A stretch of 64,000 bases of DNA, from NCBI RefSeq assembly GCF_003018115.1, contig NZ_CP027457.1; one strand, 5' to 3'. The notes beneath the pieces were generated by a model. The model saw only the letters and a list, made by a program, of their open reading frames with translations, ran no database searches and had not been told where the DNA came from. Positions 4,108 through 60,357 of the stretch are shown one piece after another. The translations under genes were made by a program, and so were the position numbers. The stretch's first letter is position 1; each line of letters starts with the position of its first letter. The stretch comes from Escherichia coli (GTDB taxonomy: Bacteria; Pseudomonadota; Gammaproteobacteria; Enterobacterales; Enterobacteriaceae).

Positions 4108-6185
<2,078 letters not shown>

Positions 6186-53562: not shown

Positions 53563-54756
53563 TTAGAACTGGTAGACTAAGCCCACAGCAACGATATCAT
53601 CGGTAGCGATGCCGTTTGCTTCGTAGAAGTCATCGTCGTTGTCCAGCAGGTTGATTTTGTAATCAACATAGGTGGACATGTTTTTGTTGAAGTAGTAGGT
53701 CGCACCAATATCAACGTATTTAACCAGATCTTTATTGGTGTAACGTGGGTCGCCGTTGCCGTCATGAGCCCAACCGCCTAAATCCTTACCTTTAGATTGC
53801 AGGTAAGCGATGGACGGGCGCAGGCCAAAGTCGAACTGATACTGAGCAACAACTTCAAAGTTTTGGGTTTTGTTAGCGATGGCTGATCTTGATTCACCAT
53901 TATCAAACTCGCCACCACCATATGGGGTCATATTGCGAGTTTCAGCGTACATAGCTGCTAAATACACATTATTAGCATCATATTTTGCACCAACAGTCCA
54001 TGCTTCAGCGGTTTCACCACCAGCATTTCTGTTGCTATGGTTACGATCATTTAAACCAACTCCAACCTGACGATCTGAACGATCAGAGTTTGAATATGCA
54101 GCACCCAGACTTAAACCGAAGTCGAAGTCATAGGAAGTGGACATACCGAAACCATCACCATTTTCTTGAGCAATGTCCCGACCCTTACCCTTACCAGAAC
54201 CTTCCTGACCGAATGGACCACCGTTTTCGTTATTACTCTGATATTGCAGAGCAAAGTTCAGGCCATCGACCTGACCAAAGAAGCCATTGTTACGGTAGGT
54301 TGCAACACCATTAGCACGACCGTTCATGAAGTTGTCAGCGCCAGCATAGGTATCGCCACCAAATTCTGGCAGCATATCGGTCCATGCTTCTACGTCATAT
54401 ACGACACCGTAGTTACGACCATAGTCGAAAGTACCATTCTGACCAAAGCCTAAACCTGCAAATGCCAGACGCGTTGCAGTATTACCTTTGTCGCTTTCAG
54501 TACCGTTTGCGCCAATGTTAAATTCCCACTGACCGTAACCAGTGAATTGATCAGCGATCTGAGTTTCACCTTTGAAACCGATACGGGCATATGACATGTC
54601 GCCATCGCTGCCAGAATCATCAGAGAAGTAGTGCAGACCCACTACTTTTCCGTACAAATCCAGTTTATTACCATCTTTATTATAGACTTCAGCCGCATTT
54701 GCTGCGCCAGCAACTAATAACGCCGGGACCAGCATTGCCAGAACTTTTCTTTTCAT
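53563..54756 (-). CDS. yedS: OmpC/OmpF-family general porin, apparently intact
   Basis: ORF 53563..54825; start at [37 protein letters not shown]... (397 aa), C-terminal aromatic residue (YQF). Confidence 0.88.
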
Positions 54757-55066
54757 TATGTATTCCCTTGTGATTATAATCTTCATGAATATATCAATAA
54801 GTGCCGTTATCCAAAAAAAGCACATTTGGATACTATTCTATGAAGTTCATTTTATTTTAAGGATTGCATGTAACAAATGTATTTAAAAGATTTCAAAATG
54901 TTTCTAATCTATTTAATATAATTCAGGATTATGAATTCTGAATATAAACATTCATGAAGATTATAAATGCATATCAATATGTTATGAGTTGAGCGGAAAC
55001 ATAGGGGGTATCAATGATTGTTGCGCCAAACGGCTGGTGTGATCAGGCGCACATTAATGAAGGCAT

Positions 55067-55160
55067 AAAAAAAAGCCGGCATCATGCCGGCCCAAAAAAT
55101 ATAAACAAGACGATAAAAGGCTAATAACGGTAGCATCATGACACAGAATAATAAAAAGGT
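55067..55160 (-). ncRNA. Candidate small RNA in the yedS-yedR spacer (possibly RseX); extent approximate
   Basis: Minus-strand intrinsic terminator (gccggcatgatgccggc followed by a U-run) at 55067-55091 with no ORF upstream. The 5' end is not defined. Confidence 0.35.
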
Positions 55161-55384
55161 ATAATTGTAATCAGTGCTAATATATTGATTAAATGAATTA
55201 ATAAAGCCGATATCAAAGATAAATAAAATCGCTCAAAACGATTTTTCCTGTATTCACTGCCGTTGCGCAAAATTTATCTATTTGTTCAAAAAATGATTGA
55301 GTCTTGACTGGCTCATCCAATGTGGAAAAATGTGACTTTTATCACATAATAGTACTAAGTCTGAATTTTCCGGGTTATCTCAAA

Positions 55385-55687
55385 ATGGAATACGGTTCGA
55401 CAAAGATGGAAGAGAGACTCTCTCGCAGCCCTGGCGGCAAACTGGCTTTGTGGGCTTTCTATACATGGTGTGGCTATTTCGTCTGGGCAATGGCGCGTTA
55501 CATCTGGGTGATGAGCCGGATCCCCGATGCCCCCGTGTCGGGATTTGAAAGCGATTTAGGCTCTACCGCGGGAAAGTGGTTAGGGGCACTGGTCGGATTT
55601 TTATTTATGGCTCTGGTCGGGGCATTGTTAGGCAGCATTGCCTGGTACACCCGACCTCGTCCCGCACGTAGCAGACGCTATGAATAA
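55385..55687 (+). CDS. yedR: Small inner-membrane protein
   Basis: ORF 55304..55687; start placed at MEYGSTKMEERLSRSPGGKLALWAF...; two predicted TM helices. Confidence 0.7.
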   Translation: MEYGSTKMEERLSRSPGGKLALWAFYTWCGYFVWAMARYIWVMSRIPDAPVSGFESDLGSTAGKWLGALVGFLFMALVGALLGSIAWYTRPRPARSRRYE

Positions 55688-55726
55688 AAACTGCTAAGGT
55701 GGCGACTCTTTGGCAACGGAGCGCGT

Positions 55727-56422
55727 ATGGACTTACAACACTGGCAGGCACAGTTCGAAAACTGGTTGAAAAACCATCATCAGCACCAGGACGCGGCCCA
55801 TGACGTGTGTCATTTTCGCCGCGTCTGGGCTACGGCACAGAAGCTGGCGGCAGATGACGATGTCGATATGCTGGTGATTTTGACCGCCTGTTATTTTCAC
55901 GATATTGTGAGCCTGGCGAAAAATCATCCGCAAAGGCAGCGTTCTTCAATCCTGGCGGCAGAAGAGACGCGTCGCCTGCTCCGTGAAGAGTTCGAGCAAT
56001 TTCCGGCGGAGAAAATCGAGGCCGTTTGTCATGCCATTGCCGCTCACAGTTTCAGCGCGCAAATCGCCCCCTTAACAACGGAAGCTAAAATCGTCCAGGA
56101 TGCGGATCGGCTGGAAGCCCTGGGGGCGATTGGCCTGGCGCGCGTGTTTGCCGTTTCAGGGGCATTGGGCGTGGCGCTGTTTGATGGTGAAGATCCGTTC
56201 GCACAGCATCGCCCGCTTGATGATAAACGCTACGCGCTGGATCATTTCCAGACTAAGTTGCTGAAGCTACCGCAAACCATGCAAACCGCAAGAGGCAAGC
56301 AGCTGGCGCAGCACAACGCGCATTTTTTAGTCGAGTTTATGGCGAAGCTCAGTGCCGAACTGGCGGGGGAGAATGAAGGTGTCGATCACAAGGTAATAGA
56401 TGCGTTTTCATCCGCTGGCTGA
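55727..56422 (+). CDS. yedJ: HD-domain phosphohydrolase
   Basis: 231-aa ORF with HD motif (CYFHDIV). Confidence 0.88.
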
Positions 56423-56488
56423 GCGCGTGGCCCTAAATGGCTGTAATTATGTTAACCTGTCGGCCATCTCAGATGGCCGGTGAAATCT

Positions 56489-57907
56489 ATGCAGGAAAAT
56501 ATATCAGTAACCGATTCATACAGCACCGGGAATGCCGCACAGGCAATGCTGGAGAAACTGCTGCAAATTTATGATGTTAAAACGCTGGTGGCGCAGCTTA
56601 ATGGTGTGGGTGAGAATCACTGGAGCGCGGCAATTTTAAAACGTGCGCTGGCGAATGACTCGGCATGGCACCGTTTAAGTGAGAAAGAGTTCGCCCATCT
56701 GCAAACGTTGTTACCCAAACCACCGGCACATCATCCGCATTATGCGTTTCGCTTTATCGATCTATTTGCCGGAATTGGCGGCATCCGTCGCGGTTTTGAA
56801 TCGATTGGCGGACAATGCGTGTTTACCAGCGAATGGAACAAACATGCGGTACGCACTTATAAAGCCAATCATTATTGCGACCCGGCGACGCATCATTTTA
56901 ATGAAGATATCCGCGACATCACCCTCAGCCATAAAGAAGGCGTGAGTGATGAGGCGGCGGCGGAACATATTCGTCAACACATTCCTGAACACGATGTTTT
57001 ACTGGCCGGTTTCCCTTGTCAGCCATTTTCGCTGGCTGGCGTATCGAAAAAGAACTCGCTCGGGCGGGCGCACGGTTTTGCCTGCGATACTCAGGGCACG
57101 CTGTTCTTTGATGTGGTGCGCATTATCGACGCGCGTCGTCCGGCGATGTTTGTGCTCGAAAACGTCAAAAACCTGAAAAGCCACGACCAGGGTAAAACGT
57201 TCCGCATCATCATGCAGACGCTGGACGAACTGGGCTATGACGTGGCTGATGCAGAAGATAACGGGCCGGACGATCCGAAAATCATCGATGGTAAACATTT
57301 TCTGCCGCAGCACCGTGAACGCATCGTGCTGGTGGGTTTTCGTCGCGATCTGAATCTGAAAGCCGATTTTACCCTGCGTGATATCAGCGGATGTTTCCCT
57401 GCGCAGCGAGTGACGCTGGCGCAGCTGCTGGACCCGATGGTCGAGGCGAAATATATCCTGACGCCGGTGCTGTGGAAGTACCTCTATCGTTATGCGAAAA
57501 AACATCAGGCGCGCGGTAACGGCTTCGGTTATGGAATGGTTTATCCGAACAATCCGCAAAGCGTCACGCGTACGCTGTCTGCGCGTTATTACAAAGATGG
57601 CGCGGAAATTTTAATCGATCGCGGATGGGATATGGCCACGGGTGAAAAAGACTTTGACGATCCGCTGAATCAGCAACATCGTCCACGTCGGTTAACGCCT
57701 CGGGAATGCGCGCGCTTAATGGGTTTTGAAGCGCCGGGAGAAGCGAAATTCCGCATTCCGGTTTCGGACACTCAGGCCTATCGCCAGTTCGGTAACTCGG
57801 TGGTCGTGCCAGTCTTTGCCGCGGTGGCAAAACTGCTTGAGCCAAAAATCAAACAGGCGGTGGCGTTGCGTCAGCAAGAGGCACAACATGGCCGACGTTC
57901 ACGATAA
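56489..57907 (+). CDS. dcm: DNA-cytosine C5-methyltransferase (CCWGG)
   Basis: ORF 56480..57907; start at [21 protein letters not shown]... (472 aa); motifs FAGIGG and PCQPFS. Confidence 0.93.
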
Positions 57908-58358
57908 GGCCACGCGCAGCAAAAATATGCGCGCGATTGCCACGCGTGATACGGCGATTGAGAAGCGCCTCGCCAGTTTGTTAACCGGGCAGGGCCTGGC
58001 GTTTCGCGTTCAGGACGCCAGTCTGCCCGGACGCCCGGATTTTGTCGTTGATGAATATCGCTGCGTGATATTTACCCACGGCTGCTTCTGGCATCATCAT
58101 CACTGCTATCTGTTTAAAGTGCCTGCGACTCGAACCGAGTTCTGGCTGGAGAAGATAGGTAAAAATGTTGAGCGCGATCGCCGCGATATCAGTCGCTTGC
58201 AGGAACTCGGCTGGCGCGTATTGATTGTCTGGGAGTGCGCGTTACGTGGGCGCGAGAAGCTGACGGATGAAGCGCTTAGCGAGCGTCTGGAAGAGTGGAT
58301 CTGCGGCGAAGGTGCCAGCGCGCAGATCGACACGCAGGGGATTCATTTACTCGCTTGA
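57888..58358 (+). CDS. vsr: Very-short-patch repair endonuclease
   Basis: Start at [21 protein letters not shown]... (156 aa), overlapping the dcm 3' end by 20 nt in another frame. Confidence 0.92.
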
Positions 58359-59267
58359 TGCGTCCTGAATAACTGGCGCAACTACGGGTTTTGCCGGGAA
58401 GAGATATTTTCCCAACGTTACCAGTACCACCGCGAAGACAATTACGCCGAGCGCCAGCCATTCAATCTTCGACAGTGTTTCTCCACCCAGTCCCGTACCC
58501 AGCAAGACCGCGACCACCGGGTTAACGTAAGCGTAGCTGGTGGCGAGAGCCGGACTGACATTACGGATTAAATACATATAAGCGTTGATGGCGATAATCG
58601 AACCAAACAGCGCCAGATAGCCGACCGCAAGGAAGCCTGAAAGGGAAGGGAGCGCCGTCAGTTTTTCACCCGCAATCATCGACGCGATCATTAACACCAC
58701 GCCTGCCGCCAGCATCTCAATCGCACCCGCCATCATCCCTACAGGTAAGGTAATGCGCGAGCCATAAACTGAGCCAAACGCCCAGCTAATCGAGCCGATT
58801 AAAATCAGAATCGCGCCCCACGGATTGCCGCTTAAATTTCCACCGCTATTGAGCATGATGATTCCGGCAAGCCCAATGGCAATACCCACCCATTCCAGTT
58901 TGCGCGTTTTAATGCCAAACAGGCGGCTGAAGCACAGGGTAAAGAGGGGCACGGTTGCAACCACTACGGCGGCGATGCCGGAAGGAACATTTTGATGTTC
59001 GGCAACCGTCACCATGCCATTACCGACAGCCAGCAATAACAGGCCAATCAGCGCGGCATTGAGCAGCGGACGTAGCGGGGGGAGTTTGTGTCCGCGCAGT
59101 AGCAAAAATGCCAGCAATAAAATACCGGCTGCCAGGAATCGAACGCCCGCCATCATTAACGGAGGCCAGCTTTCCACGCCAATCCGAATGACAAAATAGG
59201 TTGAGCCCCAAATGATATACAACGCAAACAGCGCGCCAAAAAGCGGTAACAACTGGCGGAAACGCAT
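58347..59267 (-). CDS. yedA: EamA/DMT-family inner-membrane transporter
   Basis: 306-aa 10-TM ORF. Confidence 0.88.
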   Translation of the reverse strand: MRFRQLLPLFGALFALYIIWGSTYFVIRIGVESWPPLMMAGVRFLAAGILLLAFLLLRGHKLPPLRPLLNAALIGLLLLAVGNGMVTVAEHQNVPSGIAAVVVATVPLFTLCFSRLFGIKTRKLEWVGIAIGLAGIIMLNSGGNLSGNPWGAILILIGSISWAFGSVYGSRITLPVGMMAGAIEMLAAGVVLMIASMIAGEKLTALPSLSGFLAVGYLALFGSIIAINAYMYLIRNVSPALATSYAYVNPVVAVLLGTGLGGETLSKIEWLALGVIVFAVVLVTLGKYLFPAKPVVAPVIQDASSE

Positions 59268-59439
59268 AATCCCTCACGGTGGAAATAAAAAGGTGGTTCA
59301 TAGTAAACGTGAAAATCATTCTGCTGGCGAGAGATATAATTGCACTTGATTGTTAAAAAAATGTTGACCTGTGAAGCAAGTATCAGAGCTGCCGTTTTTG
59401 CTTCATACTTACACCCTTCAACAATAAAAATGAGAGGGA

Positions 59440-60357
59440 ATGCTTTTGGCCGGGAGTAGTTTACTGACGTTGCTCGATGATATCGCCACACTACTGGACG
59501 ATATCTCCGTGATGGGCAAACTGGCGGCGAAGAAAACCGCCGGTGTATTAGGGGATGACTTATCGCTCAATGCGCAACAAGTTTCAGGCGTGCGGGCCAA
59601 CCGGGAACTTCCCGTGGTCTGGGGCGTGGCGAAAGGATCGCTGATTAATAAAGTGATTCTGGTGCCGCTGGCGCTGATCATCAGTGCGTTTATCCCGTGG
59701 GCGATTACGCCTCTGTTGATGATTGGTGGCGCGTTTCTCTGCTTTGAAGGAGTAGAGAAAGTGCTGCATATGCTGGAGGCGCGTAAACATAAAGAAGATC
59801 CGGCGCAGAGCCAGCAGCGTCTGGAGAAGCTGGCGGCGCAGGATCCGCTGAAGTTTGAAAAGGACAAAATAAAAGGGGCGATTCGTACCGATTTTATATT
59901 GTCTGCCGAAATCGTCGCCATCACGCTGGGGATTGTGGCCGAAGCGCCGTTGCTTAATCAGGTGCTGGTGCTTTCAGGCATCGCGCTGGTAGTGACCGTG
60001 GGCGTCTACGGTCTGGTAGGGGTTATCGTGAAGATTGATGACCTGGGGTATTGGCTGGCGGAAAAATCCAGCGCGCTGATGCAGGCATTAGGTAAAGGAT
60101 TATTGATTATCGCGCCCTGGCTGATGAAAGCGTTATCGATTGTCGGCACGCTGGCGATGTTCCTCGTCGGCGGCGGGATTGTGGTACATGGTATTGCGCC
60201 GCTGCATCACGCCATTGAACATTTCGCCGGGCAGCAAAGTGCAGTGGTGGCGATGATATTACCGACTGTTTTAAATCTGATTCTTGGATTTATCATCGGC
60301 GGCATCGTGGTGCTGGGAGTGAAAGCCGTAGCGAAAATGCGCGGTCAGGCACATTAA
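59440..60357 (+). CDS. yedI: DUF808-family inner-membrane protein
   Basis: 305-aa [35 protein letters not shown]... Confidence 0.88.

Follow-up and report, generated by a model that had tools for sequence, protein, structure and literature searches.

Within the window, a 64,000-nt stretch of Escherichia coli DNA (contig NZ_CP027457.1), the genes drpB (yedR), yedJ, dcm, and vsr lie in the same direction, separated by spacers of 39 nt and 66 nt and then joined by a 20-nt overlap (Table 1). This is almost certainly the chromosomal drpB(yedR)-yedJ-dcm-vsr operon of E. coli. ORF coordinates, Pfam, NCBIfam, and RefSeq annotation all agree with the calls of yedJ, dcm, and vsr made in an earlier note on this DNA; the NCBIfam matches of the three proteins are at the equivalog or subfamily level and well over cut-off. 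In a near-identical genome, the RefSeq/PGAP annotation agrees on the gene boundaries (dcm listed there as 4190-5608 and vsr as 5589-6059) and on the 20-nt overlap. No observation spoke against this identification. The first gene of the transcript is drpB, and the operon begins one gene upstream of yedJ. The start of drpB was published as ATG-22, giving a protein of 100 aa (PMC7648144); PGAP calls a 93-aa form from 55406. At the other end, the convergent gene yedA, whose final 12 nt are shared with the final 12 nt of vsr, is the boundary of the operon and not a member of it. The only match over the gathering score in an Rfam search of positions 54800-59500 was the RseX sRNA, located upstream on the other strand; no leader or riboswitch was detected in the spacers.

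Table 1. Features of the drpB-yedJ-dcm-vsr locus (coordinates of the 64,000-nt window)
Feature	Position	Strand	Details
Promoter-like site TGGAAA-16-CATAAT	55323..55350	+	Consensus scan, 9/12 matches
drpB (yedR), small inner-membrane cell-division protein	55385..55687	+	NCBIfam NF038392 div_DrpB_YedR, 4.5e-45
yedJ, predicted HD-domain phosphohydrolase, 231 aa	55727..56422	+	ATG 55727, TGA 56422; 39-nt gap from drpB
Two cross-genus conserved blocks, yedJ-dcm spacer and dcm start	56447-56462, 56476-56500	+	Eight-sequence alignment
GC-rich hairpin CGGCCATC-TCA-GATGGCCG	56461..56479	+	9 nt upstream of dcm ATG; no U tract
dcm, DNA cytosine-5 methyltransferase (CCWGG), 472 aa	56489..57907	+	ATG 56489, TAA 57905-57907
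vsr Shine-Dalgarno AAGAGG, within dcm CDS	57876..57881	+	6 nt ahead of vsr ATG; anti-SD -5.8 kcal/mol
dcm/vsr overlap, 20 nt including dcm stop, 7 codons	57888..57907	+	ORF listing, sequence, annotation
vsr, very-short-patch repair T:G mismatch endonuclease, 156 aa	57888..58358	+	ATG 57888-57890, TGA 58356-58358
yedA (EamA-family exporter), convergent	58347..59267	-	ORF listing, profile search, annotation

The region is present in 5,367 of 5,426 complete E. coli genomes, and the locus is 100% identical to that of strain PD4 (one mismatch by bit score). Relative to K-12, there are 36 substitutions over 4 kb, all of them outside the two spacers and the overlap; the genes come in the same order as in the K-12 dcm-vsr operon, and the spacers and the 20-nt overlap match it base for base. 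DrpB and YedJ are identical to the K-12 proteins, and Dcm and Vsr differ from theirs by one residue each (E301G and T131S, respectively), which amounts to strain-level polymorphism only. The porin gene next to the locus (yedS/ompC-like) is intact in this strain but frameshifted in one whose locus proteins match those of K-12.

YedJ is matched by the Pfam model HD (PF01966; 7.6e-17, 62.1 bits, cut-off 22) and by the NCBIfam equivalog NF007515 (1e-138, 460.3 bits, cut-off 286), and residues H29, H58-D59, and D125/D127 make up the H...HD...D metal-binding motif. PDB 3GW7, deposited as "uncharacterized protein yedJ", is the same protein (E = 2.6e-153). Its nearest characterised relative is YpgQ from B. 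subtilis (PDB 5DQV), a Mn-dependent (d)NTP pyrophosphohydrolase. Both proteins consist of a single HD domain of about 210-230 aa, the match covers residues 9-214, and H25, H29, H58, and D59 of YedJ, counted on the translation, carry the numbers of metal and active-site residues of YpgQ (PMC8177086). The sequence relationship, at E = 1.7e-19, suggests that YedJ may have a YpgQ-like (d)NTP pyrophosphohydrolase activity; more broadly, it is predicted to be an HD-domain metal-dependent phosphohydrolase encoded on the same transcript as dcm and vsr. A literature search on "yedJ" alone returned only unrelated papers among the matches listed. Enrichment of CCWGG in yedJ (6 sites in 696 nt versus 1.6 expected, P = 0.006) was considered as methylation feedback and rejected as chance, because the counts vary elsewhere (0-4 sites, at positions that are not conserved, in yedJ of other strains and species) and 1.4% of all 696-nt segments of the 64,000-nt sequence contain at least six sites.

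Dcm matches the Pfam models DNA_methylase (PF00145; 1e-76, 258.9 bits, cut-off 22) and, at the N terminus, DNA_meth_N (PF18284; 3.9e-20, 72.1 bits), as well as NCBIfam NF007772 (1.7e-286, 950.2 bits, cut-off 710). The C5 methyltransferase motifs are I (FxGxG), IV (PCQ, with the catalytic Cys), VI (ENV), VIII (QxRxR), and X (GN), and the Dcm translation contains FAGIGG, PCQ, ENV, QHRER, and QFGNSV. With 471 of 472 residues identical to K-12 Dcm, the protein is predicted to methylate the inner C of CCWGG. Vsr shares 99% identity with the E. coli Vsr cluster and matches Pfam PF03852 (1.2e-39, 134.4 bits, cut-off 27) and TIGR00632 (2.5e-54, 182.7 bits, cut-off 97.85, residues 1-118). The residues that we take from the crystal-structure literature to be catalytic (Asp51 and His69), intercalating (Phe67, Trp68, and Trp86), and Zn ligands (Cys66, His71, Cys73, and Cys117) are all at their expected positions in the 156-aa translation.

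The statement in the earlier note that vsr begins 20 nt ahead of the dcm stop in a different frame is exact to the base, and (57888-56489) mod 3 = 1 places vsr in the +1 frame relative to dcm. The term "frame-shifted" used there denotes this other reading frame rather than programmed frameshifting, as Vsr starts at its own ATG. The overlap is identical in Salmonella and in two Citrobacter species, C. koseri and C. freundii, and because its length is the same in all of these it is not a chance ORF artefact. Judging from the genomes sampled, the 20-nt +1 overlap is specific to the Escherichia/Salmonella/Citrobacter group: in Erwinia psidii, dcm and vsr are in tandem but about 118 nt apart, and in Mangrovibacter the two genes are divergent. 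What these pairs, and that of Neisseria, have in common with the E. coli locus is the linkage of a Vsr-family nuclease to a C5-methyltransferase. Such a nuclease repairs the deamination damage of the linked methyltransferase, although Caulobacter VsrA is unlinked to its methylase (PMC12907096).

In other genomes, namely E. fergusonii, an Enterobacter, Phytobacter palmae, and a Klebsiella-labelled isolate, dcm is absent and yedJ is followed directly by vsr; inspection by eye of the sequences upstream of vsr in dcm-less genomes revealed no similarity to the dcm 3' end. Genomes in which the two genes overlap have a weaker vsr Shine-Dalgarno sequence (-3.6 to -5.8 kcal/mol, five genomes) than genomes without dcm (-6.3 to -10.5 kcal/mol, five genomes), which fits a reliance of vsr on upstream translation in a comparison covering few lineages, some of them mutually related. 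A consensus scan of the plus strand inside dcm found no promoter-like site for vsr. The RNA around the vsr Shine-Dalgarno sequence and AUG folds at -27 kcal/mol, moderately stabler than shuffled sequences (z = -1.95); the junction RNA structure is without covariation support.

The K-12 dcm-vsr operon, including the overlap and the dependence of vsr on dcm translation, was reportedly described in 1990-93 by Sohail (1990) and by Dar and Bhagwat (1993). The view of the overlap as a co-expression device, put forward in the earlier note, is supported: a nonsense mutation in dcm codon 45 (dcm-6) eliminates Vsr activity as well (PMC4444293, citing Dar & Bhagwat 1993), and dcm and vsr have been described as co-transcribed (PMC12907096). 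Carried over from published K-12 genetics on identical sequence, this would mean that efficient Vsr synthesis here requires ribosomes translating dcm, and therefore that a cell making the methylase would also make the nuclease. We infer that the coupling works through ribosomes opening local structure or preventing polarity. Vsr is a separate polypeptide, initiated at its own ATG; it nicks 5' of the T in T:G mismatches arising from 5-methylcytosine deamination, after which short-patch repair synthesis restores the C. Co-transcription does not equal a constant Dcm/Vsr stoichiometry, because Vsr is reported to be low in growing cells, and VSP repair is reported mainly in stationary phase (PMC2715241).

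The proposal that yedJ is co-transcribed with dcm has been borne out experimentally in K-12: SMRT-Cappable-seq, a long-read method, detected an operon transcript that carries all four of yedR, yedJ, dcm, and vsr (Yan et al. 2018, PMC6131387). By analogy with these experiments on identical spacers, the same genes would be co-transcribed here. The promoter-like site ahead of drpB is likely to be the drpB (operon) promoter, as its position matches the promoter and transcription start site mapped between the old GTG-1 (55322) and ATG-22 (55385) codons (PMC7648144). From a promoter just upstream of drpB, a polycistronic mRNA would extend through the 39-nt and 66-nt spacers into dcm and vsr. A strong terminator or promoter between yedJ and dcm, which the earlier note had named as evidence against co-transcription, was not found by the scans; the spacer holds only the GC-rich hairpin. 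No promoter-like site (at least 9/12 matches) was detected by the consensus scan on the plus strand from 55909 to 58358, and the sole plus-strand terminator-like call in either of the spacers, situated between yedJ and dcm (56427-56444, six pairs with three G-C), is weak and not conserved. The SD-like GGAG of yedJ forms an anti-SD duplex of -5.8 kcal/mol. The Shine-Dalgarno sequence of dcm is weak (-3.9 kcal/mol), and an in-frame GTG lies at 56480, ahead of the dcm ATG; Dcm would be translated from the ATG at 56489, with this weak ribosome-binding site adjoining the hairpin.

An alignment of eight spacer sequences from Escherichia, Salmonella, and Citrobacter revealed the two conserved blocks, which hold the inverted repeat TTAACC (56452-56457)/GGTGAA (56479-56484; GGTTAA in most relatives). 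RNAalifold pairs both blocks in this alignment, but without a single compensatory pair (covariation term -0.01); RNA structure in the spacer thus has no support beyond sequence conservation. A short upstream ORF (ATG 56449) was also rejected: C. koseri has lost the reading frame, and the stop codon carries a mutation both here and in K-12, therefore the conservation is at the nucleotide rather than the peptide level. The blocks may act as a secondary promoter for dcm, as a leader, or as a binding site for a protein.

The spacer also bears on two other readings of how dcm and vsr are transcribed. The hairpin could attenuate read-through from yedJ to dcm, and in a stronger version it would be a terminator or attenuator that insulates dcm-vsr and in practice makes yedJ and dcm separate transcription units. 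It does have a perfect 8-bp stem with six G-C pairs (-12.6 kcal/mol alone, and -17.1 with an outer helix in which CCUGU pairs with GCAGG, the last AUG base plus the next four), it lies 38 nt after the yedJ stop, and its stem is invariant in the aligned Escherichia loci. However, the bases that follow are GUGAAAUCUAUG rather than a U tract, the hairpin was not among the calls of the terminator scan, Salmonella and Citrobacter do not conserve the stem, and full-length capped transcripts from yedR to vsr have been reported in K-12, which has the identical spacer (PMC6131387). Insulation is improbable; lying so close to where dcm begins, the hairpin would more plausibly influence translation or the stability of the mRNA. 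In the other reading, dcm-vsr is additionally transcribed from its own promoter, located either within the 3' part of yedJ or within the 66-nt spacer, and co-transcription from yedJ is optional read-through and not the sole source of dcm-vsr mRNA; it complements the operon explanation, and the two are compatible. A single IS1-mediated deletion, shared by 451 of 5,426 complete E. coli genomes and with its junction at window position 55985, has eliminated hchA', the porin gene, rseX, drpB, and codons 1-86 (the 5' third) of yedJ. Because these genomes have lost the drpB promoter and retain intact vsr and 472-aa dcm genes, dcm may also have its own promoter. The conserved blocks, the first of which includes TATGTT, are invariant from Escherichia to Salmonella and Citrobacter while their surroundings have diverged, and visual inspection of the alignment suggests a CTGAAA-17-TATGTT arrangement in Salmonella and C. 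freundii. On the other hand, E. coli lacks the -35 candidate because of a 7-nt gap in its sequence when aligned with Salmonella and Citrobacter, the consensus scan found no site with at least 9/12 matches between 55985 and 56488, transcription out of IS1 is possible in the deletion variant, retention of intact ORFs is no proof of expression, and SMRT-Cappable-seq reports the extended operon (PMC6131387). We therefore treat a dcm-proximal promoter as a tentative possibility and lean somewhat against it.

The remaining alternatives concern the protein products. The vsr frame is open for a further 54 codons upstream of its ATG, to TTG 57726, as would be needed if programmed +1 frameshifting of ribosomes where dcm ends produced Vsr as a Dcm-Vsr fusion. 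This reading is effectively refuted: vsr has its own ATG with AAGAGG ahead at canonical spacing, Vsr orthologues in dcm-less genomes begin at the same MADVH... residues, the matches of the 156-aa protein to the NCBIfam and Pfam models start at its residues 1-2, and Dcm and Vsr are reportedly translated separately (Dar and Bhagwat 1993). As for YedJ, it might be a partner of VSP repair or of 5-methylcytosine damage handling rather than a bystander, a role to which we give little credence. By analogy with YpgQ, one form it could take is a pyrophosphohydrolase clearing modified or deaminated pyrimidine nucleotides, and if such a partnership were real, the conserved core would consist of yedJ and vsr, with dcm inserted between them. 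The location of yedJ directly upstream of vsr (with a 17-36-nt gap) in four sampled dcm-less enterobacterial loci speaks for it, but plain conserved synteny with gain or loss of dcm explains this adjacency equally well. Moreover, distant YedJ homologues have neither dcm nor vsr nearby, P. vulneris retains vsr without yedJ, and the 451 E. coli genomes with the IS1 deletion truncate yedJ and keep dcm-vsr.

The drpB(yedR)-yedJ-dcm-vsr operon is the preferred explanation of this locus, and the earlier interpretation was right and already known: the overlap has been known since 1990-93 and the co-transcription since 2018. The finding therefore has little weight as a discovery, as the question of yedJ co-transcription was answered experimentally in 2018 (PMC6131387). 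The dcm/vsr overlap in this strain is that of the well-studied E. coli locus, ordinary and already explained, and it represents the textbook coupling of a mutagenic DNA modification with its dedicated repair enzyme.

Pfam and NCBIfam concur unambiguously on the three genes named in the earlier note, an HD-domain yedJ followed by dcm and vsr: YedJ carries an HD domain (Pfam) and matches NF007515, "phosphohydrolase" (NCBIfam), Dcm matches PF00145 and PF18284 (Pfam) and NF007772 (NCBIfam), and Vsr matches PF03852 (Pfam) and TIGR00632 (NCBIfam). The interval 55727-58358 is the exact span from the yedJ start to the vsr stop. As had been noticed, vsr begins within dcm in a different frame: from its ATG (57888) to the end of the dcm stop codon (57907) the two genes overlap by 20 nt, with vsr in the +1 frame relative to dcm [(57888-56489) mod 3 = 1]. 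RefSeq annotation of the same sequence agrees on the gene ends and the 20-nt overlap, and lists drpB, yedJ, dcm, vsr, and, converging on them, yedA. A GTG at 56480 is in frame with dcm, three codons before its ATG. The Dcm translation has all methylase motifs intact (FAGIGG, PCQ, ENV, QHRER, and GNS), and that of Vsr keeps every one of its catalytic and zinc residues (D51, C66, F67, W68, H69, H71, C73, W86, and C117, as in the structural literature). The observation is confirmed and its interpretation supported; the yedJ-dcm-vsr feature itself is already known.

Coordinates of genes and of the small RNA around dcm and vsr (window positions)
Feature	Position	Strand	Product or match	Source
Porin gene, yedS locus	53563-54825	-	397 aa, intact	PGAP "porin OmpC"
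RseX, Hfq-binding sRNA	55068-55157	-	98 bits, E = 2e-13	Rfam RF01401
yedJ	ATG 55727 to TGA 56422	+	231 aa	ORF list and sequence
dcm	ATG 56489 to TAA 57905-57907	+	472 aa	ORF list and sequence
vsr	ATG 57888 to TGA 58358	+	156 aa	ORF list and sequence

Dar and Bhagwat reportedly found in 1993 that dcm and vsr are expressed from a common promoter, that the two proteins are translated separately, and that Vsr synthesis depends on translation of the upstream dcm. That dcm and vsr partly overlap, and what this does functionally, is well established (PMC4444293), and dcm-6, a nonsense mutation at codon 45, abolishes Vsr activity too (PMC4444293, citing Dar & Bhagwat 1993, Mol Microbiol 9:823). VSP repair reportedly acts mainly in stationary phase, with Vsr held low during growth (PMC2715241). 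The earlier view that the overlap ensures co-expression needs this one qualification: Dcm and Vsr are linked by it, but their ratio is not fixed. In five genomes with dcm, the vsr anti-Shine-Dalgarno duplex is predicted at -3.6 to -5.8 kcal/mol; in five that lack dcm it is stronger (-6.3 to -10.5 kcal/mol). A weaker signal inside dcm fits translational dependence on dcm, though the sample is small and partly non-independent. The predicted fold around the vsr Shine-Dalgarno and AUG (-27 kcal/mol) is moderately better than shuffles (z = -1.95) and has no covariation support.

Gene order elsewhere was sampled by a genome scan with YedJ and from the gene context of Vsr homologues (n = 7). Several Escherichia, Salmonella, Citrobacter koseri, and C. 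freundii have (drpB)-yedJ-dcm-vsr next to yedA, with an overlap of exactly 20 nt and the same TAA. Four genomes have no dcm at the locus and carry vsr directly behind yedJ, 17-36 nt away: E. fergusonii, Enterobacter sp. kpr-6, Phytobacter palmae, and "Klebsiella sp." BIGb0407 (L029:3787-4968, L031:3785-4971, L032:3781-4965, and L009:7001-8200). The Shine-Dalgarno of vsr is stronger in these four. Three of these four genomes keep vsr codons 1-7 (ATG GCN GAY GTN CAC GAT AAR), and the TAA that stops dcm is therefore part of conserved vsr coding sequence. In BIGb0407, CAT AGC AAA places a TAG one codon earlier; in Pseudescherichia vulneris, which has vsr without yedJ or dcm, the seventh codon is AGA, giving TAG in the dcm-stop frame. 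Mangrovibacter keeps drpB-yedJ, with dcm and vsr divergent and ~5 kb away; Erwinia psidii has dcm and vsr in tandem, ~118 nt apart and 3.6 kb from yedJ; and neither dcm nor vsr lies within 7 kb of the YedJ homologues in Rhizobiaceae, Balneolaceae, Herbaspirillum, Marinomonas, Bacillota, and Bacteroidota.

In Escherichia sp. MOD1-EC7003 (L023:6723-8249), too, vsr has outlived dcm: yedJ is internally deleted, leaving residues 185-228, and dcm residues 1-37 are joined to 307-472, with vsr intact. E. coli CM13 (L025:2624-2847) has lost dcm except for the last 23 codons and retains vsr with its Shine-Dalgarno region, which looks like an engineered knockout designed to retain vsr. Across the drpB-yedI region of E. 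fergusonii CP058057.1, proteins are 70-89% identical to those of E. coli, as distant as in Salmonella; this looks low for a congener, and the region may have been replaced horizontally.

RseX, whose intrinsic terminator is called at 55093-55073, is encoded in the stretch from the porin gene to drpB and is transcribed divergently from the drpB promoter region, a known K-12 arrangement (PMC7648144). In CM13 the porin gene has a frameshift and an internal stop; the DrpB, YedJ, Vsr, and YedA accessions are those of K-12. Downstream, the convergent genes vsr and yedA overlap by their final 12 nt (58347-58358). No plus-strand terminator was called after vsr, and on the yedA strand the closest terminator-like hairpin (CGCGTGGCAATCGCGCG and CATATTTTTG; 57930-57946, minus strand) sits within the 5' end of vsr, ~400 nt past the yedA stop, which suggests that the two mRNAs are likely to overlap antisense.

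To call the role of yedJ unknown, as the earlier note did, is still fair. The crystal structure of its product (3GW7) was deposited as "uncharacterized protein yedJ". Among characterized relatives, B. subtilis YpgQ is the nearest (5DQV; E = 1.7e-19); it is a Mn-dependent (d)NTP pyrophosphohydrolase. The authors of the K-12 SMRT-Cappable-seq study guessed that YedJ might act on the nucleotide pool in connection with DNA modification or repair (PMC6131387); such a role is a possible lead.

Co-transcription of yedJ with dcm, which the earlier note had thought possible, is borne out by documented read-through in K-12 (SMRT-Cappable-seq, PMC6131387) across a spacer identical to the one here. The transcript would begin at drpB, formerly yedR, which encodes a non-essential divisome protein (PMC7648144). 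Western and complementation data place its main start at old codon 22 (ATG 55385; 100 aa), with the promoter between old codons 1 and 22 (PMC7648144); automatic annotation starts it seven codons downstream (ATG 55406; 93 aa). A promoter-like TGGAAA-16-CATAAT at 55323-55350, found by scanning, agrees with the published position. Comparison with a K-12 genome over 4 kb shows 36 substitutions, all of them outside the spacers on either side of yedJ (drpB-yedJ and yedJ-dcm) and outside the overlap. No residue differs in DrpB or YedJ, and one does in each of Dcm (E301G) and Vsr (T131S). K-12 experiments therefore transfer directly. Region 55300-58700 is 100.0% identical to strain PD4 (1 mismatch by bit score) and occurs in 5367 of 5426 complete E. 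coli genomes.

Nothing strong separates yedJ from dcm, given this read-through and the scans. These found no promoter-like site on the plus strand from 55909 to the vsr end, and a single, marginal terminator-like call in the spacer (56427-56444; 6 pairs, 3 of them G-C), in sequence unconserved even within Escherichia. A GC-rich hairpin with a perfect 8-bp stem (56461-56479; -12.6 kcal/mol) is followed by GUGAAAUCUAUG, with no U tract. With an outer helix, in which CCUGU pairs with the G of the dcm start codon and the four bases after it, it reaches -17.1 kcal/mol; the dcm Shine-Dalgarno is weak (-3.9 kcal/mol), and the modeled hairpin would more plausibly affect dcm translation or mRNA stability.

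A single transcript from drpB through vsr remains our main explanation, to which a secondary dcm-proximal promoter or regulatory leader could be added; we consider this addition possible though somewhat doubtful. Two observations together leave room for it. Spacer blocks 56447-56462 and 56476-56500, flanking a variable center, do not vary among Escherichia, Salmonella, and Citrobacter; they hold the inverted repeat TTAACC/GGTTAA (GGTGAA in this strain and K-12), show no covariation within 56447-56500 in that alignment, and are candidates for a promoter, leader, or operator. Furthermore, the same IS1 junction, at 55985 (L024:4248-5438), is present in 451 of the 5426 complete E. coli genomes; the deletion there has taken the porin gene, rseX, and drpB together with the 5' end of hchA and yedJ codons 1-86, leaving dcm (472 aa) and vsr intact. 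A lineage can thus keep dcm-vsr without an intact YedJ, and this variant serves as a natural experiment on whether dcm depends on YedJ or on the promoter upstream.
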